From IMG/VR virus record IMGVR_UViG_3300035501_000524: DNA of 64,000 nt; one strand, written 5' to 3'. The DNA comes from a virus. Taxonomy: Duplodnaviria > Heunggongvirae > Uroviricota > Caudoviricetes. Positions 1-15,049 of the stretch are shown here, piece by piece (the stretch's first letter is position 1; the number at the start of each line of letters is the position of its first letter). Position numbers and translations under genes: made by a program. Below the pieces are notes generated by a model. The model was not told where the DNA came from. It did no database searches and was given only the letters and a program-made list of their open reading frames with translations.

Positions 1-140
1 AAAAATTCGCATATGGGGGTCCGGCCGGAAGTTCGGGCCGCTTCGCTCCCGAACGGCCCGTTGATTCAGCGCAGTAGTAACGCGTTACTTCGTTAAAGTG
101 TTACACTTCAACGCGCTAAAGCGACGTGCGCAAGCAAAAG

Positions 141-166
141 GCTGGGTGTCATTACACCCAGCCCGG
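141..166 (-). terminator. Hairpin GGCTGGGTGT-catt-ACACCCAGCC downstream of the 169..309 gene, followed on the minus strand by TTTTGCTTG
   Basis: Inverted repeat read directly from the sequence, immediately 3' of the stop codon. Confidence 0.4.
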
Positions 167-168
167 CC

Positions 169-309
169 TCAGTCTTCCTCTTCATGCTCATCCCTAAATC
201 CCTGCTCAGGGCAGTCGCGCCAAGGATTCCGCAACATGCAACCCCCATCTGCGTAGTAAGGGCAGTCCCAATTATCATCAATGCAATCCCAATCAACTGG
301 CTTTTTCAT
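169..309 (-). CDS. Small Cys-rich protein with acidic tail, 46 aa, family C (WDCP...G.C motif). The start was trimmed to the ATG after the conserved RBS, because the 66-aa ORF in the track reads through the leader.
   Basis: ATG at 307-309 preceded by GAGAGG. The upstream part of the track ORF translates the promoter leader as SNEREVKEM. Paralog of 12242..12394. Confidence 0.5.
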   Translation of the reverse strand: MKKPVDWDCIDDNWDCPYYADGGCMLRNPWRDCPEQGFRDEHEEED

Positions 310-340
310 TTCTTTTACCTCTCTTTCATTTGATACACTT

Positions 341-369
341 ATTTTACCATGAAAAAACATCGTTGTCAA
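341..369 (-). promoter_or_regulatory. Sigma-70-like early promoter: TTGACA (rc of 364-369), 17-bp spacer, TAAAAT (rc of 341-346)
   Basis: Hexamers read as the reverse complement. They are followed by the leader ATCAAATGAAAGAGAGG and then the ATG of 169..309. Confidence 0.6.
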
Positions 370-373
370 GAGA

Positions 374-395
374 AAAATCCCAATTTCTTGGGATT
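374..395 (-). terminator. Hairpin AAATCCCAA-tttc-TTGGGATTT after the stop of 402..812, followed on the minus strand by TTTTTCTC; probable intrinsic terminator
   Basis: Stem-loop plus U-run on the transcribed strand, immediately before the next -35 box. Confidence 0.55.
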
Positions 396-401
396 TTTTC
401 T

Positions 402-812
402 TTATTTTTTCGGTTTTCGCTTCTGAACAAGCGTAAATTCATAGGTTTCATCCCCAATTTGGAAAGAAATCTGTCTTTCTGCATTAGTAATTGTAACATT
501 TTCATAGGAAATTTCGGAATTTTCCTGCAAAAACTGTGCAATTTGTGCAATTACACCAGATTTTGTGGTGTTTTCTTTCTTTTTTTTCTCGAATTTATAG
601 GTTGTAGGCTTCTTTGTGGTAGTTTTTGTACCAGTCTTAGTGTTCGCCTTAACTACCTTTTTCTGCTCTTCTGTCAAGTCATTTGTGACTTCCTTCATTG
701 ACATTTTATCGACCTCAAGGTCATCCATTACAAGGGCAAGTGCTTCATCTCTGGACAGACCTAAAACTTTCATCTGTTTGGAAACTTCCTTTTCAATCTG
801 TTGTGGTGTCAT
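402..812 (-). CDS. Early protein family B, 136 aa: N-terminal helix-extended-helix/SAP-like motif (KQMKVLGLSRDEALALV) and a Lys/Thr-rich middle region
   Basis: ORF with its own promoter at 846-874 (TTGACA-17-TATACT) and the leader ATCAAATGAAGAAAGGAAG. Paralog of 4864..5232. Confidence 0.6.
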   Translation of the reverse strand: MTPQQIEKEVSKQMKVLGLSRDEALALVMDDLEVDKMSMKEVTNDLTEEQKKVVKANTKTGTKTTTKKPTTYKFEKKKKENTTKSGVIAQIAQFLQENSEISYENVTITNAERQISFQIGDETYEFTLVQKRKPKK

Positions 813-911
813 TTTATCGACTTCCTTTCTTCATTTGATACATTAAGTATAGCACACAATTCTAGATCTGTCAAGAGTTTTTTAAACTTTTCCCCTACGG
901 GGAGGGGAGGA

Positions 912-1289
912 TTACTCCTCCTCCTCAATTTCCGCAAGCTTGAAGTAAGCTTTTCTCTTTTCCTCAAATCTGATAACTTTACCTTCATCTTTGAGCTGTC
1001 TAACAAGGGCTGTTACTTTCTGGTTTGCTAAACCTTCCAGTTCCGGAATTTCCTTCATCATCTGGGAGATTGTAGCGGAAGCACCGCCTGCAAGATGAGT
1101 AAGGATAACATTTTTCAGACCTTCATTAGCAGTCTGGGTAGCAGTCGGCTTGCGCTCTGCTGAATTTTTCTTAATGGTCTGCTCAAGAATTTTCTCAAGC
1201 TTTGTAACTGCTTCTTCATTACCTGTTGCTCTAACTGCTTCGATTGCGATTTCAAGGGCTACTTTGTTTGTCATTTTGTTGTTCATCAT
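912..1289 (-). CDS. Early protein family A, 125 aa: MTNKMTNK N-terminus and a predicted winged-helix-like C-terminus; putative DNA-binding protein
   Basis: Promoter TTGACA (rc of 1369-1374), 17 bp, TATAAT (rc of 1346-1351), with an A-tract UP element at 1375-1397. Paralogs at 2984..3361 and 5327..5710. Confidence 0.6.
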   Translation of the reverse strand: MMNNKMTNKVALEIAIEAVRATGNEEAVTKLEKILEQTIKKNSAERKPTATQTANEGLKNVILTHLAGGASATISQMMKEIPELEGLANQKVTALVRQLKDEGKVIRFEEKRKAYFKLAEIEEEE

Positions 1290-1413
1290 GGTATCTACCT
1301 CTTTCTTTCTTTTTTTTATTTGTTTTCTTTGTTCTTTATGTATTTATTATATCATGGGTTATTAGGTTTGTCAAGCTTTTTTTTTATTTTTTTTTGGATT
1401 TTTGTTTGGGGAT

Positions 1414-1776
1414 TCAATCCCCAAACATTTCCTTTACTTTGATAACTTTCTCATACTCGATGTCGAAATTTCTCCATTCACCAGAAGGCGAATAGTAGTA
1501 ATGCCCAATTGATGGGGTCAAACCATTGTAATCATCAAAAGGATTAGAAAGACCTTCTTCCTCTCCCCAATACTGGATAAACAAAGCGGCTTCTTCGGTC
1601 TTAGTTCCGATGAAGTAGGCATCTTCTAATCTCTCAACTGAATTACCTTCTTCATCTGCTAAAGTGAACTGTCCAACAACCGCATTCAGTGCAAGCTGAA
1701 ATTCATAGTTTCTGCATTCATCTTCATCCCAGAACTGTGCTCCATCATTAGCTTCATAGTAAGTTACTTCCTTCAT
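1414..1776 (-). CDS. Hypothetical early protein, about 120 aa; start moved to MKEVTYY
   Basis: The first ATG of the track ORF is the ATG inside the conserved leader ATCAAATGAAGAAAGGA. The ATG at 1774-1776 has proper spacing from the RBS. Confidence 0.5.
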   Translation of the reverse strand: MKEVTYYEANDGAQFWDEDECRNYEFQLALNAVVGQFTLADEEGNSVERLEDAYFIGTKTEEAALFIQYWGEEEGLSNPFDDYNGLTPSIGHYYYSPSGEWRNFDIEYEKVIKVKEMFGD

Positions 1777-1833
1777 TTTATCAATTCCTTTCTTCATTTG
1801 ATGTATTTATTATATCATGGGTTCGGGGTTTTG

Positions 1834-2010
1834 TCAACCCCCAAATCCAAACTTTTTAGCGATTTTTTTACATCTCGCTATTCTTGCTTCTTCATTACCG
1901 CTTTCCATCTGGAAAGTAGTGTACTTTACTTTAAAAGGATGTCCAGAAGCAACCGCTTCTGCATAGCTTGTGGTTTCAACTCCATTTACCAAATAAGATA
2001 CTTTTGTCAT
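1834..2010 (-). CDS. Hypothetical small early protein, 58 aa (MTKVSYLVNG...)
   Basis: Promoter TTGACA-17-TATAAT at about 2046-2074, leader ATCAAATGAAGAAAGAGAGG, ATG at 2008-2010. Confidence 0.5.
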   Translation of the reverse strand: MTKVSYLVNGVETTSYAEAVASGHPFKVKYTTFQMESGNEEARIARCKKIAKKFGFGG

Positions 2011-2011
2011 T

Positions 2012-2221
2012 TTACATTTCCTCTCTTTCTTCATTTGATGTAATCATTATAACATAGATTTGAGGGTCTGTCAATAGTTTTTTTAACTTTTCTCGATTTT
2101 TTCTTCTAGCTGACCGCTTTACCATGCGGGCGTCTTTTGCCCTGTTCCGATTATGAACACATTTTGCGTTGATGTCCCAACAGGTAAAGCCCACCATTGT
2201 TTCTCTCTTAAAAGCATCCAT
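2012..2221 (-). CDS. Hypothetical basic small protein (RNRAKDARMVKRSARRKNRE); the C-terminal part overlaps the next promoter, so the true end is uncertain
   Basis: Promoter TTGACA-17-GGTATAAT at about 2238-2268 and a strong RBS AAGGAGGG before the ATG at 2219-2221. Confidence 0.4.
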   Translation of the reverse strand: MDAFKRETMVGFTCWDINAKCVHNRNRAKDARMVKRSARRKNREKLKKLLTDPQIYVIMITSNEEREEM

Positions 2222-2342
2222 TGTTTGTTCCCTCCTTTACTTTCTAAAGAAATTATACCAAAATTTTGGGAAAATGTCAATTCCGGAATATTAACCAAAA
2301 TTTGAGAAGAAAATTTGTATAGATTGACTATTGACGAAAAAC

Positions 2343-2400
2343 CGGCCGTCGCATGCGACCACGGCCGGCCAATTATACTACATCTTCTGGAATTTGTCAA
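2343..2400 (-). promoter_or_regulatory. Repeated-element copy A: minus promoter TTGACA (rc of 2395-2400), 17 bp, TATAAT (rc of 2372-2377), firing directly into the GC hairpin CCGGCCGT...ACGGCCGG (2343-2368) followed by TTTTT
   Basis: A promoter, hairpin and U-run with no ORF between them. It lies about 80 nt upstream of the promoter of 2012..2221. Confidence 0.5.
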
Positions 2401-2440
2401 GTAGTAAAATTGCATAAAAAAAAGAAGCCCGAAGGCTTCT

Positions 2441-2641
2441 TTAACTGTAGAAGTATGCGGCTTCCCTCATTTCCTCCTCTGTACATTCCACATGACACAT
2501 GTCAGTTGCGTATGCGGCGACTCCTACCCAGCTTCCGGGCTTACATCTTGCATTTGCAAGATGCTTAGCATCTCGAGCCTTTTCATTCTCAATCATTCTC
2601 GCAAGCGTTAAAGAAGTATTTACCAAACCACGAACATCCAT
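2441..2641 (-). CDS. Hypothetical small early protein, 66 aa
   Basis: Promoter TTGACA-17-TATAAT at about 2662-2692, leader ATCAAAAAGAAAGAGAGG. The terminator hairpin GAAGCC-cgaa-GGCTTC at 2424-2439 has a U-run on the minus strand. Confidence 0.5.
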   Translation of the reverse strand: MDVRGLVNTSLTLARMIENEKARDAKHLANARCKPGSWVGVAAYATDMCHVECTEEEMREAAYFYS

Positions 2642-2698
2642 TTCATTTTCCTCTCTTTCTTTTTGATAGAATCATTATATCATACCTTTTGGTTAATG

Positions 2699-2899
2699 TC
2701 AATAAGAATTTTCATAATCCACAACCATTTCTTTATATCTGCCGGAAATCGTATTTCTAAGAATCCGCCATACTCTCCAAATGGGATTTCCACCCGTAAA
2801 AGCTGAATGATAAACACTCTTGAAATTGTTTAAAGATTTTCTTTCCGTCCACGCTTTAAGTGCATGGTATGTACTTGCTTTAATGTTCCATTTTGCCAT
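2699..2899 (-). CDS. Hypothetical small early protein, 66 aa
   Basis: Promoter TTGACA-17-TATAAT at about 2925-2960, leader ATCAAAAGAAAGAGAGG. Confidence 0.5.
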   Translation of the reverse strand: MAKWNIKASTYHALKAWTERKSLNNFKSVYHSAFTGGNPIWRVWRILRNTISGRYKEMVVDYENSY

Positions 2900-2983
2900 T
2901 TTTCTTTTCCTCTCTTTCTTTTGATACTGTTATTATACCATAGCGTGGACTAGTTGTCAACCCCCTTTGGGGGAAACTGAGGA

Positions 2984-3361
2984 TTATTCCTCAGTTTCAG
3001 TGTTAAGGTAAAAGTATACCTTTCTCTTTTCCTCAATTCTGATGACTACGCCATCTTCTTTGAGCTGTCTCACAATAGCGGAGACTTTCTGGTTAGACAG
3101 CCCCTCAAGGCTTGCCACACCTTTCATAATCTCTGTTACTGTCGCTCTCTTGCCATCAGACAGGAAAGCTACAATGTCTGCTTTCAGACCTTCATTAGCA
3201 ACCTGCGTTGCTGTCGGTTTTCTCTCCGCAGAGTTCTTTTTAACAGTCTGCTCAAGAATTTTCTCAAGCTTTTCAATAACCTCTGTATTCGGGGTTTCCT
3301 GTGCTCCCAGAGTTGCGATTGCGATTTCCAGTGCCTTTTTGTTAGTCATTTTGTTTGTCAT
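2984..3361 (-). CDS. Early protein family A, paralog 2, 125 aa
   Basis: Strong similarity to 912..1289 and 5327..5710 (EKLEKILEQT.KKNSAERKPTATQ.ANEGLK). Promoter at about 3407-3437. Confidence 0.6.
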   Translation of the reverse strand: MTNKMTNKKALEIAIATLGAQETPNTEVIEKLEKILEQTVKKNSAERKPTATQVANEGLKADIVAFLSDGKRATVTEIMKGVASLEGLSNQKVSAIVRQLKEDGVVIRIEEKRKVYFYLNTETEE

Positions 3362-3993
3362 AGTATCAATTCCTTTCTGGTTTTTAGAACTTTTTCCTTG
3401 TTCCTTTTGATGTTTTTATTATATCATGTTTGATAATGGTTGTCAAGAGGTTTTTGAAAAAACTTTTTTGGGTGCTTTGCTTAGGTAAGTCTTGTTTATT
3501 TGATTGAATAGTTGGTTCCTTGCCATTCTTCAACTGGAAACCGCTTACACTCTAAGCAACTGTTTGGTTTTTCTCAACCTCTGTGACTCCATTATAACAC
3601 TCTCAGCTAAGATTGTCAAGTGTTTTTTTTTATTTCATCTTCTGGATTTTCGAGGAGCGCTCAACTCGTTTTCCTTCTTGATGCTTTTATTATATCATAG
3701 CTTGAAGTGTTTGTCAAGAAGTTTTTTTTATTTTTTTTTGAAGATGGCTCTTCCGACCGCCAATTACAACCTATCCAAGTTCGACTGTTAGGCAACTTCC
3801 TTCTTGACTATGTACTTATTATAGCACATCTGGTTTAGTTTGTCAAGAGGTTTTTTTTATTTTTTTTCTTTCGGCTTCTGGAAGCCTTTCCCTCCTGACA
3901 GTTATTATAATATCACATCTACCCCTAGAATACAATTGGTAAAATGCACAAATTTTGGGAAAAATATTTGTGCAGTTTTTTCACCGGTTTTGC

Positions 3994-4023
3994 TTGACAA
4001 AATGCTGAAGCCTGTGGTATAAT
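3994..4023 (+). promoter_or_regulatory. Repeated-element copy B: plus-strand promoter TTGACA (3994-3999), 18 bp, TATAAT (4018-4023), driving three consecutive hairpins at 4031-4057, 4055-4073 and 4077-4101
   Basis: Hexamers on the plus strand inside the minus-strand gene block. Downstream is GC-rich structured sequence with no ORF. Confidence 0.5.
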
Positions 4024-4082
4024 CGAAATTCTGGCCGCGTCAGTGGAAAGCGGCCAGCCCAATTATCGGGCTGACCTTAGGC

Positions 4083-4367
4083 TTACAGCTGATAGCCTAA
4101 GCCTTTCAGCAGGTCAATTAGCTGTTCACTCTTGGTGTACTGACGATGGTTCGGGATGAGTACAGCGGCTACCACCTCAGCTTTGTATCCGGTGTCGAAC
4201 TCCGGATCATCCAGAGCCTCCTGAGGAGTCATGAACTGGATGCGGTTGATGATGGTCACGTTGCCATCGGCGTCATTCGCATCGAGGAAGTCAGCCGCCT
4301 CAAACGGGTCAGCGAACAGTGCGTTGTATTCAGCTCCATTGATTGTCATGTAATATTTGTCTAACAT
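4083..4367 (-). CDS. Hypothetical early protein, about 94 aa (MLDKYYMTINGAEYNALF...); the track ORF start at 4541 was rejected
   Basis: Promoter TTGACA (rc of 4422-4427), 17 bp, TATAAT (rc of 4399-4404), and the leader ATCAAATGAAAGAGAGG lie inside the track ORF. The real ATG is at 4365-4367. Confidence 0.5.
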   Translation of the reverse strand: MLDKYYMTINGAEYNALFADPFEAADFLDANDADGNVTIINRIQFMTPQEALDDPEFDTGYKAEVVAAVLIPNHRQYTKSEQLIDLLKGLGYQL

Positions 4368-4510
4368 TTTCATTACCTCTCTTTCATTTGATAAGACTAT
4401 TATAATGCCTACGTGCCATTTTGTCAACCCATTTCGGGAAATTCGTTTAAAAAATTTTGCACAAAGATTTCCAAAAGAAAAACTCTGAACTATACAAACT
4501 GCACAAAAAC

Positions 4511-4570
4511 CGCCCCGCGCAAGCGTAATCGGGCGGCCCAATTATACTTCACCTTTTGGATTTTGTCAAT
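4511..4570 (-). promoter_or_regulatory. Repeated-element copy C: minus promoter TTGACA (rc of 4565-4570), 18 bp, TATAAT (rc of 4541-4546), firing into a GC hairpin at 4511-4537 followed by TTTTT
   Basis: Same architecture as copy A, flanked by several TGCACAAA motifs. Confidence 0.5.
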
Positions 4571-4641
4571 AGGCAAAATGCACAAAATTTTGATTCGTCA
4601 TTTTGCACAAAAACGTGCTTTGTGCAAATTGCACAAAAAAA

Positions 4642-4675
4642 ATGACCCCTATTTTCTGGGGTCATTTTTTTTAAA
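4642..4675. terminator. Bidirectional terminator: hairpin ATGACCCC-tattttct-GGGGTCAT with T-runs on both sides
   Basis: Perfect 8-bp GC-containing stem flanked by A8 and T8 runs. Confidence 0.6.
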
Positions 4676-4822
4676 CCAGCTGTAAGGTAAAGCGGTTTTC
4701 ATGTTCCAACAGATGCGCCTGTATTGCGCTTTTACCCTTTGCGAGAATCTCACCTGTTTCTAAATCCAAAAGAATGTTATCTGCATTTTTGTCGATTACT
4801 AAACCGAAATGTTTCATGTTTT
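4676..4822 (-). CDS. Small hypothetical protein, 48 aa (MKHFGLVIDKNADNILLDLETGEILAKGK...); not in the ORF track
   Basis: RBS AAAGGAGATAAAAAC before the ATG at 4820-4822, stop at 4676-4678. Confidence 0.35.
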
Positions 4823-4863
4823 TATCTCCTTTGCGCTTTTCCTATTTTTTGGTTTTTCGCCCC

Positions 4864-5232
4864 CTATTTTCTGGGGGCGCTCAAAACCACTTTGTATTTT
4901 GTATCATGGAAGTGAAAAACAAACTCTCTTTCTGGGTTCGCAACTTCATCAACCGCAATTCCCAAACTGTCAGACAACGCTTGAATCATGGTTGAAACCA
5001 GTTCTTCCTTGTCTGGATTCTTTTTCTTTTCCCTCTTGGAAGTATCAAACTTATAAGCTGTCACCTTTCTTTCAACCTGTCTTGCTTTCTTGGAAGCTTT
5101 TTCCTGTTCCTTAGATAAATCAAAAAGCTTTTCGCCTTTATCAATCCGCTCATCATCTTCAATCAGCTGAATTGCTTCTTCTCTTGTTAAACCGAGCAAT
5201 TTCATTTGCTTTGCAATCAGTTTTTCATTCAT
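4864..5232 (-). CDS. Early protein family B, paralog 2, 122 aa (KQMKLLGLTREEAIQLI SAP-like N-terminus)
   Basis: Paralog of 402..812. It lies immediately downstream of the family A gene 5327..5710, the same A-then-B order as 912..1289 and 402..812. Confidence 0.6.
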   Translation of the reverse strand: MNEKLIAKQMKLLGLTREEAIQLIEDDERIDKGEKLFDLSKEQEKASKKARQVERKVTAYKFDTSKREKKKNPDKEELVSTMIQALSDSLGIAVDEVANPEREFVFHFHDTKYKVVLSAPRK

Positions 5233-5326
5233 GCTGTTTTATCTCCTCTCTTTAGCTTATACTTTATTCTATCACAGCCGATTGAGATTGTCAAGGGGAA
5301 ATTTGCATTTCCCCTTGATTTTTTCT

Positions 5327-5710
5327 TTACTCTTCTTCCTCAGAAGAGTTGTAAGCGAAATACGCTTTCCGCTTTTCCTCGATTCTCACAACCAGATTTT
5401 CCTCTTTCAGATTTCTCACAAGAGCGGTTACTTTCTGGTTAGCAAGACCCTCGAGTTCCGGAACTTCTTTCATCAGTTCCGAAATTGTCTTTTTCTCACC
5501 TGTCGCTTTCAGATAAGCGAGAATGTTTTCTTTCAGACCCTCATTTGCGGTCTGAGTTGCTGTTGGCTTTCTCTCAGCCGAGTTTTTCTTGATTGTCTGT
5601 TCAAGAATTTTTTCCAATTTCTCGATAACCTCTGTATTAGGAGTTGCCTGAGCGTTCATAACCTCGATTGCGATTTCCAGTGCTTTTTTGTTTGTCATTT
5701 TGTTTGTCAT
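5327..5710 (-). CDS. Early protein family A, paralog 3, 127 aa
   Basis: Promoter TTGACA-17-TATAAT at about 5762-5795 with a long A-tract UP element. Confidence 0.6.
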   Translation of the reverse strand: MTNKMTNKKALEIAIEVMNAQATPNTEVIEKLEKILEQTIKKNSAERKPTATQTANEGLKENILAYLKATGEKKTISELMKEVPELEGLANQKVTALVRNLKEENLVVRIEEKRKAYFAYNSSEEEE

Positions 5711-5933
5711 AATACCTACCTCTTTCTTTCTTTTAATTTTTATTTTGTTTTCTTTATGTATTTATTATATCATAGGGTTTTATGTTTGTCAAGACTTTTT
5801 TTTTTATTTTTTTTTTCTTTTTTTTTATTTCACTCTTGACTTTCCTTCCCTTGCTACTCTTTAATGATACCACAGGTTGACTTGTTTGTCAAGCTTTTTT
5901 TTTATTTTTTTTTCGCCGTCCTTGTGGGCTTGT

Positions 5934-6632
5934 TTAAGCCCACAACTTCCGAACCATTTTCTTGTGCTGTTTAAAACAGTATGCAAGAATTTCTTTTTCA
6001 ATTAAAACATCTTCTAAACCAGTGTGGTTTTCAGAAAATTCATTGTTTTTTGAAATAAATCTGTAAAGGATTTCAGCGGTAAACCGAAGTCTGCCATTTT
6101 TGGTCAAATAACCATTTTCTTCACAAAATTTCTGATAAGTTGGCATTTTTCCAATAACCTGTCTTGACATTTTCAAAGTGTCGCAAATTTCAGTTCCATA
6201 AGGAAAGAAAAACCGATATTTTGATTTTGTCAGCCATCTTTGCGTATTATTTAAAGTTCCATAGTCAAAACGCATGTTGTGCGCATAGACTTCTTTTACC
6301 TCATAGAGTTTCATGTCATCTGCAAGCTGTTTTCTGATTTCATAGAAACTTGCAACAACTCTTTTGCCCTCTGCAATTTCCTTTTTATACATCGGAATTT
6401 TTTTTGCATAATAGCTTGACTTCATCAGCTCTTTTTCTTTATTGAAAATTTCATCAACAACAAAACTTCTTGCTACATACACAACACCCCTTTTATCAAC
6501 TACCGCCCAACCTATATCATAGGAAAACATGTTGCTAGGAAGAACATCTTCCAGAGTATTGTCAAGCGGACAACTCTCGCAATCTAAAACTACCTTGTAA
6601 CTAATTCTTCTGTCAATTTTTTTCTGCTCCAT
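5934..6632 (-). CDS. DEDDh-type 3'-5' exonuclease-like protein (DnaQ/RNase T/oligoribonuclease fold), 232 aa
   Basis: Candidate exonuclease motifs: I VLDCESCPLD (D.E), II YAHNMRFDYGTL (H/N..FD), III HTGLEDVLIEKE (H....D). Recognised from the motifs, not from an alignment. Confidence 0.45.
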   Translation of the reverse strand: MEQKKIDRRISYKVVLDCESCPLDNTLEDVLPSNMFSYDIGWAVVDKRGVVYVARSFVVDEIFNKEKELMKSSYYAKKIPMYKKEIAEGKRVVASFYEIRKQLADDMKLYEVKEVYAHNMRFDYGTLNNTQRWLTKSKYRFFFPYGTEICDTLKMSRQVIGKMPTYQKFCEENGYLTKNGRLRFTAEILYRFISKNNEFSENHTGLEDVLIEKEILAYCFKQHKKMVRKLWA

Positions 6633-6962
6633 TTCTTTTTACCTCTCTGTTCTTTATGTATTTATTATATCATGGAGTAGGAAGTTTGTCAAGCATTTTT
6701 TTTATTTATTTTTATTTTTTTTTTGTTTGCTCTTGACTTCTGTTCCCCTCAACTGATAAACCTATTATAAGCCTTTTCATCATAGAATACAATAGGCAAT
6801 CTGCACAAAGATGATAGAAAATTTTTGTTAATTCTGCCAGGAGTAAAAGTTGCACAAAGTTTTGCCATGAAGTTTGTGCAGGTTGCCCATTGACACGCCC
6901 CAGGCTAGCAAAGTGCCCAATTTCGGGAGAATTTAAGCGAGAAAATTTGTGCAACTTTTCGC

Positions 6963-6991
6963 TTGACAAAAGCTGAGCCGTGTGGTATAAT
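6963..6991 (+). promoter_or_regulatory. Repeated-element copy D: plus promoter TTGACA (6963-6968), 17 bp, TATAAT (6986-6991)
   Basis: Consensus hexamers. The transcript would begin at the GC hairpin 7001-7024 and end at the terminator 7081-7125. Confidence 0.55.
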
Positions 6992-7000
6992 GGAAATTTC

Positions 7001-7024
7001 GCCGGCCCAGGTGCGTGGCCGGCG
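7001..7024. other. GC-rich palindromic hairpin GCCGGCC-caggtgcgt-GGCCGGC lying between convergent promoters
   Basis: Stem read directly. Analogous GC hairpins occur in copies A, B, C and E with different stem sequences. Confidence 0.5.
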
Positions 7025-7028
7025 CGCC

Positions 7029-7057
7029 ATTTTACATCATCTCCTGGAATTTGTCAA
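7029..7057 (-). promoter_or_regulatory. Repeated-element copy D: minus promoter TTGACA (rc of 7052-7057), 17 bp, TAAAAT (rc of 7029-7034), converging on hairpin 7001-7024
   Basis: Hexamers read as the reverse complement. There is no gene downstream on the minus strand before the promoter of 5934..6632. Confidence 0.5.
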
Positions 7058-7080
7058 TAGGCAATTTAGACAAAAATTTA

Positions 7081-7125
7081 GAGTCAAGTTTATGCAACTT
7101 GACTCTTGACTTTTTACTTTTATTT
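7081..7125. terminator. Hairpin GAGTCAAGTT-tatgc-AACTTGACTC plus a T-rich run, the plus-strand terminator for the copy-D transcript; it also follows the stop of minus gene 7132..7341
   Basis: 10-bp perfect stem followed by TTGACTTTTTACTTTTATTTG on the plus strand, and by AAATTTTT on the minus strand. Confidence 0.5.
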
Positions 7126-7131
7126 GTCCCT

Positions 7132-7341
7132 TTAATCCTCGTAGAAATTCACTGGATAAATCTGCTCATCGTAGTAATAGCCTTCTTCTTCCATCTGTTG
7201 GCGCGCTTCTTCTTTTTCTTTTTCCTCGCTCTCTTTAAACCGATAGTTTAAATAATAGGTTTCAAAGGCTTGCATTGCTAACTCTTTTGTTGCGTACGCT
7301 CCAATGTCTCCATCACTATCCCAAACGTAAATTCTTTTCAT
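7132..7341 (-). CDS. Hypothetical small acidic protein, 69 aa
   Basis: ORF with an upstream promoter-like TTGACA at 7382-7387 (rc). Confidence 0.45.
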   Translation of the reverse strand: MKRIYVWDSDGDIGAYATKELAMQAFETYYLNYRFKESEEKEKEEARQQMEEEGYYYDEQIYPVNFYED

Positions 7342-7407
7342 TGTATCAACCTCTTTTCTTTTTTCTTTATTATACCACTGTTGACGCCCCCTGTCAAGGG
7401 GAAATTC

Positions 7408-7848
7408 TCAGAAGCTTCTGAGAATTTCCATGATGTTCTGAACATCGAAAGCATTTGCGCCCCATTCTGTTCTGTTTCTTTCTTCATCATCAAACAGGAA
7501 ACCTGTTCTGTCAGATACTACCGAACTTTTTGGTGTTCCATAAGTGACAATTTTGATTTCATCCCATTCAATACTCGGAAGATGTTTAGCAAGCCATTTC
7601 AGCTTTGTTGCGGTAACTTCTGCATTGAACTCTGGTGAACCACTCTTGGAAAGCCATGATACAATTCCGATTCTGTAACCGCTGTTCTGCAATCTGTGAA
7701 GCTGTCTTGCGAAACTTGAAAAGTTTAAAAGCGGTTTTGCAATTTCATAAGGTCTTGTGTTCGAGTTCATTAAATCTTCCAGCCATCCCTCTACTCCATA
7801 GAAGTTTGCGATTGTTCCATCCATGTCGAAATAAATTGTTCTTGTCAT
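7408..7848 (-). CDS. HAD-superfamily 5'(3')-deoxyribonucleotidase-like phosphatase, 146 aa
   Basis: N-terminal IYFDMDGTIANF (the DxDGT phosphoryl-acceptor motif of HAD and NT5C-type dNMP nucleotidases) and a later FDDEERN acidic motif. Confidence 0.5.
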   Translation of the reverse strand: MTRTIYFDMDGTIANFYGVEGWLEDLMNSNTRPYEIAKPLLNFSSFARQLHRLQNSGYRIGIVSWLSKSGSPEFNAEVTATKLKWLAKHLPSIEWDEIKIVTYGTPKSSVVSDRTGFLFDDEERNRTEWGANAFDVQNIMEILRSF

Positions 7849-7928
7849 TTTATCTACCTCTTTCTTTCTTTCTTTTGATAATATTATTATAACCTATTTT
7901 TTGGTAATTGTCAAGTATTTTCTTTTAA

Positions 7929-8048
7929 CTATTTTAAAGTTATTTTATAGCCATTAGCATCCTTTTCTACCACATACAAGAACTGATTTTCTTTTAAATA
8001 CTTTTCTGCCTTTTCAAAAGCTTCCTTAGTTGTGTACAAGATTGACAT
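7929..8048 (-). CDS. Small hypothetical protein, 39 aa (MSILYTTKEAFEKAEKYLKENQ...); not in the ORF track
   Basis: Promoter TTGACA-17-TAGAAT at about 8076-8106, RBS AAAGAGAGG, ATG at 8046-8048. Confidence 0.3.
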   Translation of the reverse strand: MSILYTTKEAFEKAEKYLKENQFLYVVEKDANGYKITLK

Positions 8049-8103
8049 TTCATTTACCTCTCTTTTAAGTTATACCTTATTCTATCACAATCTTTTTAGT
8101 TTG

Positions 8104-8718
8104 TCAAGAGGCTTTTTTAAAAGCCCCTTGAAAATAACTCTGATAAATTTTATCAGCTTCGATTAAATCAAAGTTCGTATTGATAAATCTGTCATTCTTT
8201 TTAAAAGAATTTGGATATCTTCTAATGTAAATTGAACGAAAATAGCTTTCTAACCCCTCTGCCGGAAAATCCATACAGTCATACACTCTGTGAATCACTG
8301 CCCTAACCGCGCCCATCTTTTTGTAAGTATCACTGTTTAATTCCTCTGTTAATCTTTTTCTAATTTCTCTAGTCGTAGTTCCAACTTTTGAACACAATAC
8401 GTTGTCATTATCATCGAAAAAGGTAAATAGATAACATTTTTGTTTTGCTTCATCCAGAAGTGATGGACAGTCAGAAGAAACTAGAATCTTTTCAGTATTT
8501 TTTGTTTTTCTTTTGGTTTCAATCTGACTAATTTCTTTTACCGCATTCTCGAAGGGGTCAAGAATATATTTTTTTGCTAACTCTTTGCAGTGTTCAAAAA
8601 TTGTCTTGCAAACTTCAAACCATTTCTTCTTCCAGTTCTTTGAAGTGTTTTCAAGTCTTTCTTTTGCGCCTTCAAAATCATCATTTTTTACATACCAATC
8701 CATTGATTTATTTGCCAT
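8104..8718 (-). CDS. Hypothetical early protein, about 204 aa (start at MANKSMDWYV)
   Basis: The conserved leader is translated as KERKKEM at the front of the track ORF. Promoter at about 8740-8775. Confidence 0.5.
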   Translation of the reverse strand: MANKSMDWYVKNDDFEGAKERLENTSKNWKKKWFEVCKTIFEHCKELAKKYILDPFENAVKEISQIETKRKTKNTEKILVSSDCPSLLDEAKQKCYLFTFFDDNDNVLCSKVGTTTREIRKRLTEELNSDTYKKMGAVRAVIHRVYDCMDFPAEGLESYFRSIYIRRYPNSFKKNDRFINTNFDLIEADKIYQSYFQGAFKKAS

Positions 8719-8786
8719 TTCTTTTTTCCTCTCTTTCATTTGATAATGTTATTATAGCACCGAACGTGCGGTTTGTCAACACTTTT

Positions 8787-8990
8787 TTATTTATTTACGA
8801 TTTTGTCAAGTAAAATTCCCAGATAGTATTCTGTAAAGGTACATGGACGCATTACAAAATCTTCTTTATTCCATTTATCATACTTAAGCGCCATTTTATT
8901 AAGCATCTGCTGTTTATTCCGAATTGGATATTTTGATTTAATAAAATAATTATTTGAATCCCCAGTAATTTTGACTAATCCGTAATACAT
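8787..8990 (-). CDS. Hypothetical small protein, about 67 aa (start at MYYGLVKITG)
   Basis: RBS GAAAGAGAGG before the ATG at 8988-8990. TTGACAGG at 9045-9052 (rc) serves as the -35. Confidence 0.4.
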   Translation of the reverse strand: MYYGLVKITGDSNNYFIKSKYPIRNKQQMLNKMALKYDKWNKEDFVMRPCTFTEYYLGILLDKIVNK

Positions 8991-9010
8991 TCTGTTTACC
9001 TCTCTTTCTA

Positions 9011-9199
9011 TCAATTATTATACTCTAACTCTTTCAACCTGTCAAGAGTTTTTTCAATATTTTTCTGATATTTATGTGTTCGATTCTCTCGACACCATTC
9101 ACATGAGCCATGATTCCGACATTGACAATCAATTGCCTTTGCTCCTCTATACATTTTTCTATGTTCTTTTCCGCTCATTATTGCCTTTTCCATGCTCAT
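9011..9199 (-). CDS. Small Cys-rich zinc-ribbon-like protein, about 62 aa (CQCRNHGSCEWC)
   Basis: C-x-C...C-x2-C spacing. Leader ATCAAAAGAGAGGAG before the ATG. Confidence 0.45.
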   Translation of the reverse strand: MSMEKAIMSGKEHRKMYRGAKAIDCQCRNHGSCEWCRENRTHKYQKNIEKTLDRLKELEYNN

Positions 9200-9266
9200 T
9201 GTTTTATCTCCTCTCTTTTGATACATTTATTATAACAGAAGGGGTTGAACTTGTCAACCCCTTTTT

Positions 9267-9713
9267 TTAAAATTTTTCTGTAAAAATTACATAACCTTCA
9301 CGATAACCGCCGAAACAATCATCAAATTCTTTGTCACTACCTTCAATTTCATAATCGTTAATAAGATAATTAACTAACTGATTTCTAAATTTACGAATCC
9401 ATTTTCTATCTTTTCTTGCAAATTCTTTCATTTTATTATTCCAGAGGAATGTTCTTGTATTAACTTCCAGACCATCAGAATCAAAAGTCTCACAAATTTT
9501 TGGAATGTTTCTGTCAAGAACCTCTTTAGCCTGCTCCTCAGACCACACAAGCTTTTCGCCCTGTTTCTCTTTATATTTTTCAACTACTCGATATCCAACA
9601 TAGAGAGGATACAGAATCACTCTCATAACCTTGTAGCCATTCTCATTCCACCATTCTCTAACAATGTGTTCTCTTTTTACCTGTCTTGCATTCATCATTT
9701 CCTCAAATCTCAT
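9267..9713 (-). CDS. Hypothetical early protein, 148 aa
   Basis: ORF with promoter TTGACG-17-TATAAT at about 9745-9778. Confidence 0.5.
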   Translation of the reverse strand: MRFEEMMNARQVKREHIVREWWNENGYKVMRVILYPLYVGYRVVEKYKEKQGEKLVWSEEQAKEVLDRNIPKICETFDSDGLEVNTRTFLWNNKMKEFARKDRKWIRKFRNQLVNYLINDYEIEGSDKEFDDCFGGYREGYVIFTEKF

Positions 9714-9797
9714 TTTATTTACCTCTCTTTCTATCCTTACCTTGTAAATACATTATAGCATAGGTTTGTGAGTACGTCAAGCTTTTTTTAATTTTTT

Positions 9798-9935
9798 TTA
9801 ATTCCAATCATATTCCATGGCATCCTCATAATCTATATTATGACGCTTACACCAATTTTTAAAATTTTTTACTGAACCGCTTGCAATTACTACATCAATA
9901 TATTCTTCTGTTGTTAATTCATCAATTTTTCTCAT
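9798..9935 (-). CDS. Hypothetical small protein, about 45 aa (start at MRKIDELTTEEY)
   Basis: The leader is translated as SKEREVNKM at the front of the track ORF. Confidence 0.35.
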   Translation of the reverse strand: MRKIDELTTEEYIDVVIASGSVKNFKNWCKRHNIDYEDAMEYDWN

Positions 9936-10003
9936 TTTATTTACCTCTCTTTCTTTTGATAGTATTATTATAACGCCTTTACGTTCATTTGTCAATACTT
10001 TTT

Positions 10004-10210
10004 TTAAATTAGTTGAAAACAATTCATGATGTTAACGTAACTATTGCAAGAAAATTCTCTAACTGTTTTTGATAAAAATTTCAACATGATTTTTTTAACA
10101 ATAGTTTCTGGTAGAGTTTTTATCATTTCCCTTTCAATAGTATTGTAAATTCCATTTGGTAATTCATACATCTTCATGGTGTCAAACTCTTCTATTGTCA
10201 ATAATCTCAT
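10004..10210 (-). CDS. Hypothetical small protein, about 68 aa (MRLLTIEEFDTMKMYELPNG...)
   Basis: Promoter TTGACT-17-TATAAT at about 10232-10262, leader ATCAAATAAAGGAAGAGG. Confidence 0.45.
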   Translation of the reverse strand: MRLLTIEEFDTMKMYELPNGIYNTIEREMIKTLPETIVKKIMLKFLSKTVREFSCNSYVNIMNCFQLI

Positions 10211-10379
10211 TTTCAAGTTCCTCTTCCTTTATTTGATGATATCATTATACCACCACCCATTCCAGAAGTCAAGCAAAAATTGCACAAAAATTAAGTAAAA
10301 ATTTTGGTTATTTTTTCCTATTGTGCAAAGTGACGAAATTTCGGGATTCCGACCGGAAAATATTTGTGCAATCTGCCTA

Positions 10380-10408
10380 TTGACAAAATTGCGGGGTGGT
10401 GGTATAAT
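10380..10408 (+). promoter_or_regulatory. Repeated-element copy E: plus promoter TTGACA (10380-10385), 17 bp, TATAAT (10403-10408), driving GC hairpin 10418-10445 and then the bidirectional terminator hairpin 10464-10485
   Basis: Consensus hexamers on the plus strand within the minus-strand gene block. No ORF downstream. Confidence 0.5.
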
Positions 10409-10483
10409 TGAAAATTCCGGCCGCAAGGACAGTGCGCGGCCGGTCAAAAATTGAAACAAAAAAGAGCTAATTTCTTAGCTCTT

Positions 10484-10657
10484 TCACTTAAATATCAACT
10501 TAATAATTATCACCGCAACCCAAACCACAAAGGCCAAACCCCAGGTGAATGTAATGAACACTCCGGCAAACTGAAGAACAAACAGCAAAAGCCAAAGCAA
10601 GCCCGCAGTAAATAAGAAGTCAAGTAGTAATGTAAATAATACTGTTAGTGCTAACAT
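10484..10657 (-). CDS. Small hydrophobic membrane protein, 57 aa (two predicted TM helices); not in the ORF track
   Basis: ATG at 10655-10657 after AGAGAGGAGAAAAAG. An unusually long leader of about 100 nt, GC-rich, follows the promoter at 10758-10790. Confidence 0.4.
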   Translation of the reverse strand: MLALTVLFTLLLDFLFTAGLLWLLLFVLQFAGVFITFTWGLAFVVWVAVIIIKLIFK

Positions 10658-10787
10658 GTTCTTTTTCTCCTCTCTTTTGGAGGCTGAGAGCCTTTCCTCG
10701 GCATCGCCTCGTGTTCAAGACAACACTGGTACTTTTGGCTCCCGACACCTCTTTCTTGATGATTTAATAATACCACACTTTTGGTTA

Positions 10788-11036
10788 TTAGTCAAGCCTT
10801 TTTCTTGTTCTATTTACAGATTCAAGTAAACATGCATCAGCGAAAAAATAAATCACATGAGACCATTTTAAAGATTCTTTTGCATAGACTAACAAATCTT
10901 CTTCTGTTGGATTCTCTGGAATGCCTGATTTTCTCCAAGTGTCAATACTTTCTTGGCACTCTGTATTCATTACGTATTTCTCCATCTGTTGGAGCAAATG
11001 AAGTCTTATTTCTATTATTTCTTCCTTGCTATACAT
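10788..11036 (-). CDS. Hypothetical small protein, about 82 aa (start at MYSKEEIIEIRLH); its stop codon lies inside the -35 box of the next promoter
   Basis: ATGTATAG start/stop overlap with the upstream small gene. Confidence 0.45.
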   Translation of the reverse strand: MYSKEEIIEIRLHLLQQMEKYVMNTECQESIDTWRKSGIPENPTEEDLLVYAKESLKWSHVIYFFADACLLESVNRTRKRLD

Positions 11037-11169
11037 TGCGCTCCTCCTCTTGCTTAACAATGAACTGTAATAGTTCTATTAAGTCCTTTACATCATCTAT
11101 TGTCCCTATCTCAATGGCGTGTTCGCTATCACAACCATAGAAAATTTTATTATCTTGTTCAATGTTCAT
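11029..11169 (-). CDS. Small hypothetical protein, 46 aa (MNIEQDNKIFYGCDSEHAIEIG...); not in the ORF track
   Basis: RBS AGAGAGGAGAAGG. Start overlaps the stop of the upstream gene (ATGA). Confidence 0.3.
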   Translation of the reverse strand: MNIEQDNKIFYGCDSEHAIEIGTIDDVKDLIELLQFIVKQEEERNV

Positions 11170-11309
11170 TTTTCCTTCTCCTCTCTAAGAATTTTATTAA
11201 TGAGGTTTTTGATTTCTTTTAAATCTTCCAAATCGCAGTAAACTTTGTCGCCCCAACCGCCTTTAATTGTGTATGGATAATTTTTATCGTCGCTTCTTTC
11301 GATTGTCAT
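11166..11309 (-). CDS. Small hypothetical protein, 47 aa (MTIERSDDKNYPYTIKGGWGDKVYCD...); not in the ORF track
   Basis: Promoter TTGACA-17-TACAAT at about 11340-11372, leader ATCAAAAAGAAAAGGAG. Confidence 0.3.
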   Translation of the reverse strand: MTIERSDDKNYPYTIKGGWGDKVYCDLEDLKEIKNLINKILREEKEK

Positions 11310-11384
11310 TGTATGCAACTCCTTTTCTTTTTGATAATGTTATTGTATCACAGGGGCTGACATTTGTCAACCCCTTTTTTGAAA

Positions 11385-11798
11385 TTATTTCTGACTGATG
11401 TTAAAATCATCATTTCTATCATACAGATAGTTTGACATGAAGTCTGTTTCATCACAACCATTTACCATCATCAGAGAATACTCTTTATCTCCAAAACCAT
11501 AGAGAAGCTGTCTAATTGTTTTACCCTTTGCATAAGCATAACCGCATTCCCATGCTGTCCCGCTGTCTGAATACATCCCGAAGTTGAGAACCCACACTTC
11601 ATCAGCTTTGTCGATTGCGTCAACATCCTGCTGGAAAACCTTCCTACCCCATGTTGCATTGTCTAAATCCCACGCATTTTCAATTTCATGTTCTATTGGA
11701 GCGTAAACTTCCAAACCTTGCGCGCGCATCTTCTGGAGAATTTGAACATACATTACTCTTTCATTATTTTTGAACCATGGACTTGCTAAATAAATCAT
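11385..11798 (-). CDS. Nucleoside 2-deoxyribosyltransferase-like protein (NDT/RCL family), about 138 aa
   Basis: N-terminal MIYLASPWF, matching the IY.AGPWF motif of the NDT family, plus a later D.D..D...G..SDSGTAWECGYAYAKGK block resembling the family's catalytic-Glu region. Confidence 0.55.
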   Translation of the reverse strand: MIYLASPWFKNNERVMYVQILQKMRAQGLEVYAPIEHEIENAWDLDNATWGRKVFQQDVDAIDKADEVWVLNFGMYSDSGTAWECGYAYAKGKTIRQLLYGFGDKEYSLMMVNGCDETDFMSNYLYDRNDDFNISQK

Positions 11799-11987
11799 TG
11801 TATCAACCTCTTTCTTTTTTGATAATATTATAATATCATATTTTTTGGTAATTGTCAATAGTTATTTTTCACGTTTTAGGTTTGGACTTAATGCCCAAAC
11901 CTAATGTAGTGATTCATCCAGTTTTCGCTGAACTGCTCTTTGAACTCTTCCGCATACTCTGTATTATAACCCCTTCTGGGGCTTTTG

Positions 11988-12170
11988 TCAAGCCCCTTTT
12001 TCAAGAACTTTTATTAAATCTTCCTTTACGCAAAAGGTTCTTTTATCTCTCTTAACTGAAAAAGGACAGTTCATACAACCAATTCCAATACAGTTAGGCT
12101 CAATTAAAAGTTCGATTGCCTTAATCTCTTCTTCGTCCAGAAGTCCCCTTTTAACAACAACAGTTTTCAT
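11988..12170 (-). CDS. Small Cys-rich protein, about 60 aa (CIGIGCMNCPF...C)
   Basis: Leader AAAAGAGAGGAATTAAAAAG before the ATG at 12168-12170. Confidence 0.4.
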   Translation of the reverse strand: MKTVVVKRGLLDEEEIKAIELLIEPNCIGIGCMNCPFSVKRDKRTFCVKEDLIKVLEKGA

Positions 12171-12241
12171 CTTTTTAATTCCTCTCTTTCTTTTGATGTA
12201 TTTATTATAGCATGAAGGTTGACGTTTATCAACCCCCAATT

Positions 12242-12394
12242 TTAATCATCCTCTGTTTCCCAATATTCATCATCTTCATCCCAGAATGCCGCGAAATCAT
12301 CACATTCTTCTATTGGATTATCAATTCCGCAAGTTCCATCTTTCTTCCAGTGGGGACAATCCCAACCATTAACAGGACAATACACTTTCTTCAT
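12242..12394 (-). CDS. Small Cys-rich protein with acidic tail, 50 aa, family C (NGWDCPHWKKDGTCG...EECDDF...DDEYWETEDD); not in the ORF track
   Basis: Promoter TTGACA-17-TATAAT at about 12420-12455. Shares the WDCP...G.C...acidic-tail pattern with 169..309. Confidence 0.4.
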   Translation of the reverse strand: MKKVYCPVNGWDCPHWKKDGTCGIDNPIEECDDFAAFWDEDDEYWETEDD

Positions 12395-12463
12395 TTTTAT
12401 CAATTCCTTTCTTCTTTTGATATTATCATTATAACATGGATTGACTTAATTGTCAACAAGAAA

Positions 12464-12937
12464 TTATAATTTCTTGTTGATTTCTGTTACATTGTATTTC
12501 ACATGATATTTCTGCAAAATATCTTTGATGATAGCACTTTCTTCTCTGGTCTTACTGAAAATGTCGATGTTGTAATAGGTTTCATCTTTGTAAACTACTT
12601 CACCACAAGTATAACTAACTGAGAATGGTTCTAACTTGTTGACTAACTCTTTATCTTTTGAAGTAACTGAGATTTTCCACAAACAATCTTTCTTGCATTT
12701 TTCCATGAGCCAAATTGACGCATACACACCAATTAAATTAGTTAAGATGGTTACCGTAACAGTGATACCTAAGTCAAGACTAGCTAACTGTTTAACCACA
12801 ACCGCGTAGAATCCGTAGGACAGTGCGTTGATTGCCGCCGCGGTCTTTTTACCTGCGCGCACGGTTAAGATTGATTTCATTGTTGACAGCATTACATTGA
12901 TTAAACTACATGTAAAAAATATTATAATTGCTTGCAT
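12464..12937 (-). CDS. Membrane protein, about 157 aa: N-terminal transmembrane segments and a C-terminal soluble domain
   Basis: Start at MQAIIIFF after GAGAGAGGAG. The hydrophobic N-terminal half is read directly from the translation. Confidence 0.5.
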   Translation of the reverse strand: MQAIIIFFTCSLINVMLSTMKSILTVRAGKKTAAAINALSYGFYAVVVKQLASLDLGITVTVTILTNLIGVYASIWLMEKCKKDCLWKISVTSKDKELVNKLEPFSVSYTCGEVVYKDETYYNIDIFSKTREESAIIKDILQKYHVKYNVTEINKKL

Positions 12938-13008
12938 TTCTTTTATTCTCCTCTCTCTTGGAACTATAATTATTATACCCCGAAAGGGGTTATTTGTCAA
13001 CCCCTATT

Positions 13009-13386: not shown

Positions 13387-13482
13387 TTTATTCCACCAAA
13401 TCCCTTTAGGATTTCCCTTTCTTTATTATGTAATTATTATACCATGGGGCTGACCTTTTGTCAACCCCTTTTGGAAAATTTT

Positions 13483-14300: not shown

Positions 14301-14375
14301 TTCTTTTTCCTCTTTTCTTTCTTTTCTTTTCTTTTCTTTTTTACATTATTATAATATCATATTTTTTGGTAATTG

Positions 14376-14896: not shown

Positions 14897-14968
14897 CATC
14901 GTCTATCGACTCCTTTCTTTCCTTACCTTGTAAACACATTATAGCACACACACTGCTCCCTGTCTACT

Positions 14969-15012: not shown

Positions 15013-15049
15013 TATTGACACTCACTAATTACAACATTATAGGAATGTG

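Follow-up and report, generated by a model that had tools for sequence, protein, structure and literature searches.

The early region of a 64,000-nucleotide stretch of Caudoviricetes DNA (IMG/VR virus record IMGVR_UViG_3300035501_000524; the whole stretch is called the window below) contains promoter cassettes on the minus strand with no gene behind them. These cassettes are probably conserved tandem promoters of a single gene family, here called family A, whose product, judging from its structural model, is a small winged-helix DNA-binding protein. They are co-directional with family A, no terminator-like site lies between them and the gene, and their stacking is a trait of this gene family, which together argue for tandem promoters. 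As predicted from sequence, four perfect promoters and one weaker one precede the family A gene with ATG 3361 (gene 1), and two precede the paralog with ATG 5710 (gene 2). The coordinates of all features are collected in Table 1; promoters are named by their upstream coordinate.

The array sites are perfect matches to the consensus far beyond chance. Three gene-less promoters (3846, 3717 and 3619) match TTGACA-17-TATAAT at all 12 positions, while base composition predicts 0.005 perfect sites with a 17-nt spacer on the minus strand per 17 kb. The minus strand of positions 1-17000 carries 40 sites matching this consensus at 11 or more of 12 positions, and a consensus scan returned 73 promoter-like sites in 12 kb versus 31 in shuffled sequences. 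The usual cassette of the region begins with an A-rich or GGGG-containing tract, followed by TTGACA, a 17-nt spacer frequently ending in TG, TATAAT, about 6 nt, ATCAAAAGAAAGAGAGG, about 8 nt and the ATG; the cassettes are 61-nt repeats with 67-75% identity. Within the arrays, spaced 98-173 bp in the window, an A-rich tract of the AAAAAAAATAAAAAAAA type lies upstream of each site, and a polypurine resembling a Shine-Dalgarno (SD) sequence starts every transcript except that of 3619. The canonical gene-less promoters of the window are 3846, 3717, 3619 and 5892, all before family A genes, and 11991, which is followed by 104 nt with a hairpin (GGTTTGG...CCAAACC) and then by promoter 11858..11830, preceding ORF 11385..11858, not a family A gene.

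An earlier note on this DNA had described gene-less minus-strand promoters here as empty copies of the phage early expression cassette, and in form this is borne out. Its sites are real, with coordinates off by a few bases; a second gene-less cassette that it placed between two genes further along corresponds to 5892..5864, matching at 11 of 12 positions before a family A paralog; and the canonical leader that it assigned to each module is present except in the 3619 cassette, which has no leader of the ATCAAGAAGGAA type. The extended -10 site of the earlier note is also present, at 3935..3907, although as a weaker match with three of six bases in the -35 hexamer. This site, read directly from the sequence, forms the leftward arm of a second promoter class, element B, and its match is too weak for it to stand among the listed rows of the consensus promoter scan. 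It is kept in the related loci L001, L002 and L023-26 with one TGn change.

Stacking of promoters was followed across 19 IMG/VR loci, 9 near-identical strain contigs and 80 metagenome loci, all encoding family A homologs, each consensus promoter being classed by what comes next, a gene or another promoter. In the window and the 19 IMG/VR loci, two to four tandem promoters precede 40 of 47 family A genes, and at least two precede 18 of 315 other genes, several of these other cases (including two of the four in the window) being a hairpin-type promoter followed by a normal one. The corresponding counts for the 80 metagenome loci are 65 of 77 and 17 of 294. Some of the triple counts are inflated by a 37-aa gene in the L003-type lineage. 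The trait occurs in 10 of 12 family A protein clusters (single linkage, 65% identity) and, in the window, at two of the three family A paralogs. Relatives have from one to four promoter units per family A gene, with arrays in two or three distinct locations in each genome and family A invariably downstream, and the gene-less promoters keep their position across lineages whose family A proteins are just ~50-60% identical. In relatives, neighbouring tandem promoters lie no closer than 85 bp, most often 90-100 bp apart; this lower limit is close to the footprint of one polymerase on a promoter with an UP element. Of 67 non-redundant distal units, 62 begin with an SD-like polypurine no more than 25 nt past the -10; it reads AAGAAGGAA or AAGGGAAGGAAAG and lies 8-13 nt after the -10. 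An SD-like motif is also present near the start of 30 of 46 proximal leaders.

The closest distinct relatives, L001 and L002, with family A 87% identical to that of the window, show which parts of the cassettes are kept. Comparison of the gene-less promoters of the window with those of L001 revealed changes at none of 36 hexamer positions versus 9 of 51 spacer positions (p = 0.009). In the ortholog of the 3846 promoter in L001/L002 both hexamers are intact and 6 of 17 spacer bases are changed, and promoter 5892..5864 is identical in L001/L002, TATCAT included. Among the near-identical strains, differences in the 720-bp intergenic region are confined to element B, the A-tract lengths and the segment behind 3846, which in one strain group carries a 13-nt deletion and four substitutions. 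The conserved arrangement and the intact hexamers speak against decaying scars of deleted genes, which the earlier note had listed among its explanations: the units hold their position across lineages, and their hexamers are unchanged where the spacers have diverged. The earlier note had asked whether genes occupy these slots in related phages; when all inter-promoter segments were compared by blastn-short and tblastx with the related loci (~560 kb), no gene match or gene remnant emerged, only A-tracts besides the L001/L002 orthologs.

A more elaborate form of such an origin is that the units are neutral by-products of recombination among the ~40 near-identical cassettes, in the manner of the PeSL (promoter-early stem-loop) shuffling documented in T4-type phages (PMC2839356), gene deletion or mini-circle insertion leaving orphan promoters that have not yet decayed. 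One event of this kind is visible in L001/L002, which have just two promoters before the gene 1 ortholog, the second being a hybrid, in which the -35 and spacer of 3717 are fused inside the shared ATGATATAATAAAAnCATCAA to the downstream part of 3446. The ~270 bp absent through this hybrid comprise the 3717 leader, the entire 3619 unit and the upstream part of 3446, so the difference from the window corresponds to one recombination between cassettes. The repeat character of the cassettes, the variable unit number and the resemblance of gene-less leaders to gene leaders cut after the SD also fit a neutral origin. It is nevertheless quite improbable, since in many lineages orphan promoters cluster at a single gene family and are rare elsewhere, their hexamers stay intact while adjacent bases diverge, no gene remnant is detectable between them, and the unit with the hairpin described below predates the split of lineages whose family A is ~50% identical to that of the window. 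The presence of the 3619 unit in distant relatives suggests that the long array of the window is probably the older state and that of L001/L002 a deletion derivative. Under the tandem-promoter reading, homologous recombination between near-identical cassettes changes the number of units.

The DNA between the promoters contains little that could be a conserved product. No ORF of at least 40 codons with a plausible ribosome-binding site (RBS) was found between the array promoters, and the longest ATG ORF behind a gene-less promoter is, as already noted earlier, one of 27 codons (3526..3443) without an RBS. A 44-codon TTG ORF (3795..3661) has an SD directly abutting its start codon and crosses the next promoter. 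The 9-codon TTG ORF 3664..3635 (SAPRKSRR) has a well-spaced SD (6 nt), and the L023-26 strain variant alters the sequence just 5' of its TTG. On the plus strand, ORF 3504..3791 (95 aa, TTG start) was judged on inspection, with no homology search, not to be a gene: T-rich promoter DNA yields a Leu/Phe-rich string there.

Segment 3718..3817 folds no better than its shuffles (z = 0.0), has a counterpart solely in L001/L002 and accumulates strain indels, and is thus neither a conserved RNA nor a conserved ORF. The fold of segment 3620..3688 is not significant (z = -0.7), and no homolog of it was found in any locus beyond the near-identical strains. The unique parts behind 3846, 3717 and 5892 have no counterpart outside L001/L002. 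Since the promoters and their arrangement are kept and the inter-promoter DNA is not, no product is conserved for these three units, and their unconserved, unfolded segments speak against small RNAs or peptides there. Searches with Rfam 15 gave zero hits at gathering score in the window, chance-level hits only, all outside the arrays, at E up to 1 over 1-17000, and none within the arrays of 16 related loci; ARAGORN called no tRNA in the window or in 20 loci. No terminator-like site occurs on the minus strand in 3400-3900 or 5790-5870, and the same scan detects such sites elsewhere in the region.

The 3619 unit stands apart, since its promoter is followed by a conserved hairpin; in the remaining units, both a conserved body and a terminator are missing. 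Within the hairpin, the outer stem of 8 bp is formed by UUGCUUAG (3559-3552) and CUAAGCAA (3484-3477), the inner stem by GUAAG (3548-3544) and CUUAC (3489-3485), and the conserved flanks are CAG... and ...AGCA. The predicted 138-nt transcript from 3619 has z = -2.6, with 1 of 200 shuffles folding equally well. The core bracket AGUUGCUUAGAGU / CUAAGCAAAGCA recurs in four relatives (L064, L080, L085 and L086) with family A proteins about 48-60% identical to that of the window, and in all four its cassette is the one immediately preceding the family A proximal promoter. All five copies form a long irregular hairpin with an 8-bp closing stem, a 2-3-nt bulge and a second helix of differing sequence. 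Three of the 11 pairs (one in the outer stem, two in the inner) are changed on both sides and still paired. A covariance model built from the four relatives only ranked 3568..3460 first over both strands of the 64-kb window (24.3 bits, E roughly 0.002). An exact-pattern scan of IMG/VR gave no additional copies, and a covariance-model search of all loci returned just the five known ones. As no terminator follows it, the hairpin is taken for a conserved element of the leader and not for an established RNA of its own; it could be, for example, a processing or protein-binding site.

Other lineages carry different contents in the same slot, as revealed by comparison of 67 non-redundant inter-promoter segments. 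The distal cassette before family A in L003-L014, L030-L037, L055, L063, L066 and L079 contains a micro-ORF, MR[S/D]PPK(RK), with the pattern ATG AGA AGY CCN CCN AAA (AGA AAA) TAA in at least 10 DNA variants; its Ser and Pro codons vary at third positions only, its SD is well spaced, and it ends within the A-tract of the next promoter. A promoter-driven structured RNA of ~190-250 nt occupies the slot upstream of family A at L064:2128-2316, L074:2047-2295, L084:2095-2311 and L091:1065-1274, and also at L083:1187-1205, with compensatory changes in 10 of 23 predicted pairs and an invariant loop, GGUAUAYAARUGUGAACCA; it has no Rfam match. Further recurrent sequence families exist among the longer segments. 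None of these contents, the micro-ORF and the structured RNA included, is present in the window, and strain variants give no support to the SAPRKSRR ORF as a relic of the micro-ORF, a candidate that was rejected. As separate observations, T-arm-like GGTTCAAATCCC / GGGTTCAACTCCC (GGTTCAAATCC) motifs occur in the distal cassettes L049:767-905 and L086:624-762, where ARAGORN calls no tRNA, and a sub-threshold tmRNA match (29.8 bits versus a gathering score of 47, E = 3e-8) lies at L089:2910-3009, just 3' of a family A gene.

These contents are what could be expected if the cassettes were independent units for short regulatory RNAs or micro-peptides, with family A served by its proximal promoter alone. 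The 3619 hairpin, kept in sequence and pairing across distant relatives, the covarying RNA, the micro-ORF with its third-position variation and the recurring families of longer segments all point in this direction. Such an explanation appears unlikely: as none of the units is followed by a terminator-like site, a discrete RNA would require processing; three of the four gene-less units (3846, 3717 and 5892) lack both conserved content and a significant fold and change rapidly through indels; no Rfam match or tRNA was found; and the micro-ORF and structured RNA belong to lineages other than that of the window. Of the short non-coding transcripts proposed in the earlier note, the conserved hairpin gives some substance to one, at 3619, but not as a discrete short RNA, and the conserved small ORFs that it had named as contrary evidence exist in some other lineages and not in the window. 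Tentatively, and with similar doubt, the position upstream of family A could be reserved in this uncultivated phage clade for small effectors acting early, namely leader RNAs and micro-peptides (hairpin 3568..3460, the ~200-nt covarying RNA and the MR[S/D]PPK micro-ORF) that are processed from the family A leader or act on it in cis, controlling amount or timing. If true, they would represent a new class of phage early regulatory RNAs, beyond plain promoter stacking.

The favoured reading, tandem promoters of family A, is one that the earlier note did not consider. Under it, each unit would be a full initiation module, comprising an A-tract UP-like element, a consensus -35, a TG-bearing 17-bp spacer, a consensus -10 and a purine-rich initial transcribed region. 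Because no terminator-like site lies between the units, upstream transcripts should reach family A: those from the predicted starts 3811, 3682 and 3584 would traverse the proximal promoter into the gene, giving mRNA leaders of ~450, 320 and 220 nt, and initiations at the distal promoters would add to those at the proximal one. The array units also lack the strong GC stem-loops that in PeSLs attenuate upstream transcription (PMC2839356), which fits this account. The likely purpose is to make large amounts of an abundant DNA-binding protein very early in infection. Small DNA-binding proteins of this kind are produced in bulk by phages, phi29 p6 and SPO1 TF1 being examples.

The arrays could alternatively be polymerase sinks or entry/origin elements, acting through diversion of host RNA polymerase, DNA pull-in or R-loop priming at A-rich DNA, with the downstream gene irrelevant. 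The primary origin of T7 consists of tandem promoters beside AT-rich DNA, and T7 A1-A3 drive genome entry; the extreme density of consensus promoters with A-tracts and the location of the early region near contig ends in relatives are compatible with such roles. However, the gene-less units add just 4-5 to ~40 promoters of equal strength, a small gain for a sink, and the titration of RNA polymerase suggested in the earlier note is not specifically supported for so few units linked to a single gene family. Arrays at two or three places per genome, always before family A, are not what an origin or entry role would lead one to expect, and no iterons or other origin features were seen within them. 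These roles are highly improbable.

Several points weigh against the tandem-promoter reading. Promoter activity, read-through and effect on expression are deduced from sequence. The family A paralog with ATG 1289 has one promoter, so stacking is not obligatory. The gene caller used for the counts was crude, ORFs below 40 aa being treated as 'no gene', and a few hairpin-type promoters were counted within arrays; Fisher p-values overstate independence because the loci are phylogenetically related. The hairpin, the micro-ORF and the structured RNAs show that at least some units hold more than a promoter. Very strong downstream promoters can block upstream transcription or be occluded by it, and the output need not sum. 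Finally, small hairpins without U-tracts precede A-tracts at GGCUUCcagaGAAGCC (3886-3871) and GAAGAgccaUCUUC (3751-3738), and stem-loops of PeSLs without obvious U-tracts are reported to terminate (PMC2839356).

Stacked promoters are a known arrangement, and the conserved hairpin is a modestly new detail. Tandem strong promoters are found in T7 (A1, A2, A3) and in bacterial rRNA operons (P1-P2). Like those, the arrays consist of strong host-polymerase promoters of the same orientation, ~100-130 bp apart, with no gene or terminator between them and all reading into the first downstream gene, which for the arrays is predicted from sequence; the A/T-rich, UP-like upstream tracts recall rrn P1. 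Unlike those systems, the arrays have up to four or five units, exact-consensus hexamers of a Firmicute-type sigma-A with a TG extended -10, and, rather than standing at a unique genome end, are repeated before two or three paralogs as a trait of family A. Among Gram-positive phages, the early promoters A2c/A2b of phi29 drive the abundant DNA-binding p6, and the host-takeover module of SPO1 has many strong early promoters. The window shares with them an early region of near-consensus sigma-A promoters and tandem promoters before a small DNA-binding protein, bulk production being known there and proposed here; family A is, unlike p6 and TF1, a winged-helix protein with no detectable sequence relation to them.

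PeSLs are mobile regulatory cassettes of T4-type phages, in which each PeSL precedes a gene and the stem-loop attenuates upstream transcription (Arbiol et al. 2010, PMC2839356). The resemblance lies in a repeated AT-rich tract with a consensus sigma-70-type promoter and SD among small early genes without assigned function, in recombination between cassettes yielding indels between close relatives (here the ~270-bp difference of the L001/L002 hybrid) and in the GC stem-loops over the -35 of many other promoters in the window. The array units, on the other hand, have no strong stem-loop, stand in succession with no intervening gene and are associated with a single gene family; a text search of PMC2839356 brought up no mention of gene-less PeSLs in tandem. 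The family A array promoters fold with 0 to -5.6 kcal/mol over -47..-8, and strong GC stem-loops (GGGG...CCCC, -8 to -18 kcal/mol) over the -35 or in the spacer characterize ~10 of 28 other early promoters. Stem-loop promoters on the minus strand of the window are those at 13464, 13000, 12232, 11991, 11370, 9257, 7397, 2960 and 1837.

The polypurines resemble STAB-SD, which stabilises the cry3A mRNA of Bacillus thuringiensis from its 5' end (reviewed in PMC4113751): at the 3846, 3717 and 5892 units, too, a long untranslated leader has close to its 5' end an SD-like polypurine that initiates no gene. By this analogy, the polypurine 5' ends of distal transcripts may act as STAB-SD-type stabilisers, shielding the long leader from 5' exonuclease, or as initial transcribed sequences that aid promoter escape. 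As the polypurine is the normal ribosome-binding leader of the phage gene cassettes, it could also be inherited sequence or an effect of the initial transcribed region.

The arrays reveal how early expression is laid out in a large clade of gut and rumen siphoviruses that are uncultivated and distantly related to phAss-1. Among ~40 consensus promoters in 17 kb, one small DNA-binding family is singled out for multi-promoter drive, which marks family A as a probable key high-dose early factor. For engineering, the arrays offer natural examples of Gram-positive promoters that match the consensus exactly, are densely packed and come with UP-like tracts and defined leaders, and for RNA biology the hairpin, the structured RNAs and the micro-ORF are candidates for new phage regulatory elements.

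Table 1. Promoters, inter-promoter segments and family A genes of the window.
Feature	Coordinates	Strand	Remarks
Weak outermost promoter-like site	3935..3907	minus	TTGTAT (3935-3930), 17-nt spacer, TGa and TATTAT (3915-3907)
A-tract of promoter 1	3867-3850	minus	whole unit spans 3818..3867
Gene-less promoter 1	3846..3818	minus	TTGACA-17-TATAAT, 12/12, TG before -10
Segment from promoter 1	3718..3817	minus	polypurine TCAAGAAGGAAG first, then unique sequence, A-tract of promoter 2 last
Gene-less promoter 2	3717..3689	minus	TTGACA-17-TATAAT, 12/12, TG before -10
Segment behind promoter 2	3620..3688	minus	ATCAAGAAGGAA leader, 9-codon TTG ORF, A-tract of promoter 3
Gene-less promoter 3	3619..3591	minus	TTGACA-17-TATAAT, 12/12, TG before -10; polypurine leader absent
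Conserved hairpin element	3568..3460	minus	behind promoter 3
Proximal promoter, family A gene 1	3446..3418	minus	12/12; then 56-nt leader, SD AAAGGA, ATG 3361
Family A gene 1	2984..3361 (ATG 3361)	minus	125-aa predicted winged-helix DNA-binding protein; target of four or five promoters
Gene-less promoter before paralog 2	5892..5864	minus	TTGACA-17-TATCAT, 11/12, TG
Segment behind 5892 promoter	5863..5793	minus	71 nt; polypurine start and A-tract; unstructured
Proximal promoter, family A gene 2	5792..5764	minus	predicted to drive ATG 5710; 5892..5864 sits 100 bp upstream
Family A gene 2	5327..5710 (ATG 5710)	minus	127 aa, 71% identical to gene 1
Sole promoter, family A gene 3	1374..1346	minus	same A-tract type
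Family A gene 3	912..1289 (ATG 1289)	minus	125 aa, single promoter
Further gene-less promoter	11991..11963	minus	12/12; begins at stop codon of upstream gene

Both paralogs in the window are 65-75% identical to family A gene 1, and relatives likewise hold about three family A paralogs each. Comparison with Pfam gave weak matches to winged helix-turn-helix families. The AlphaFold model (pLDDT 83) comprises two N-terminal helices followed by a winged helix, and its Foldseek matches are DNA-binding proteins of the MarR, ArsR, PadR, MecI, AspA and TubR types; a profile search of PDB sequences yielded one marginal MarR-type match. All 919 family A homologs are in metagenomes or phage contigs, and among GenBank phages neither a 'distant' DNA search with 2900-4700 nor tblastn with family A gave a match. 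The family A leaders of the window (3417..3362, 5763..5711 and 1345..1290) end, as in relatives, in a conserved AGAAAGGAATTGATACT ATG. They are unusually long, the median in relatives being 52 nt from the -10, and in many relatives the leader contains a small GC hairpin.

Genes in 1-17000 lie on the minus strand. Elsewhere in the window are genes for a sigma factor, a terminase, a portal protein and a protein of 3386 aa, the last of these likely the tape measure by comparison with phAss-1, an uncultivated human-gut siphovirus with a predicted clostridial host (PMC10607447). The portals of the two phages share 40% identity. The sigma-factor homolog (16963-17973, plus strand; phrog_5767, E = 1.5e-49) is located at the switch from minus-strand early to plus-strand structural genes, and its C-terminal 50 residues have weak HNH, endonuclease VII and Lar-like matches.

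Element B, at 3926-4082 of the window, contains promoters of the TTGACAAAA type with a TTTGTGCA motif before them and a GC-rich hairpin directly after. Within it, at 3941-3978, the TTTGTGCA motif forms an inverted repeat (AAAATGCACAAATTTT / AATATTTGTGCAGTTT) between divergent promoters. Other promoters of this class are located at +6963..6991, -7057..7029, +10380..10408, -4569..4541, -2400..2372, -10272..10244 and -14966..14938; the hairpins at 2400 and 4569 are followed by a T-run, and the promoters at 6963 and 7057 face each other over one hairpin. Pieces of element B recur just upstream of the family A arrays in many relatives. Element B is a candidate operator for a phage regulator, which might be family A itself.

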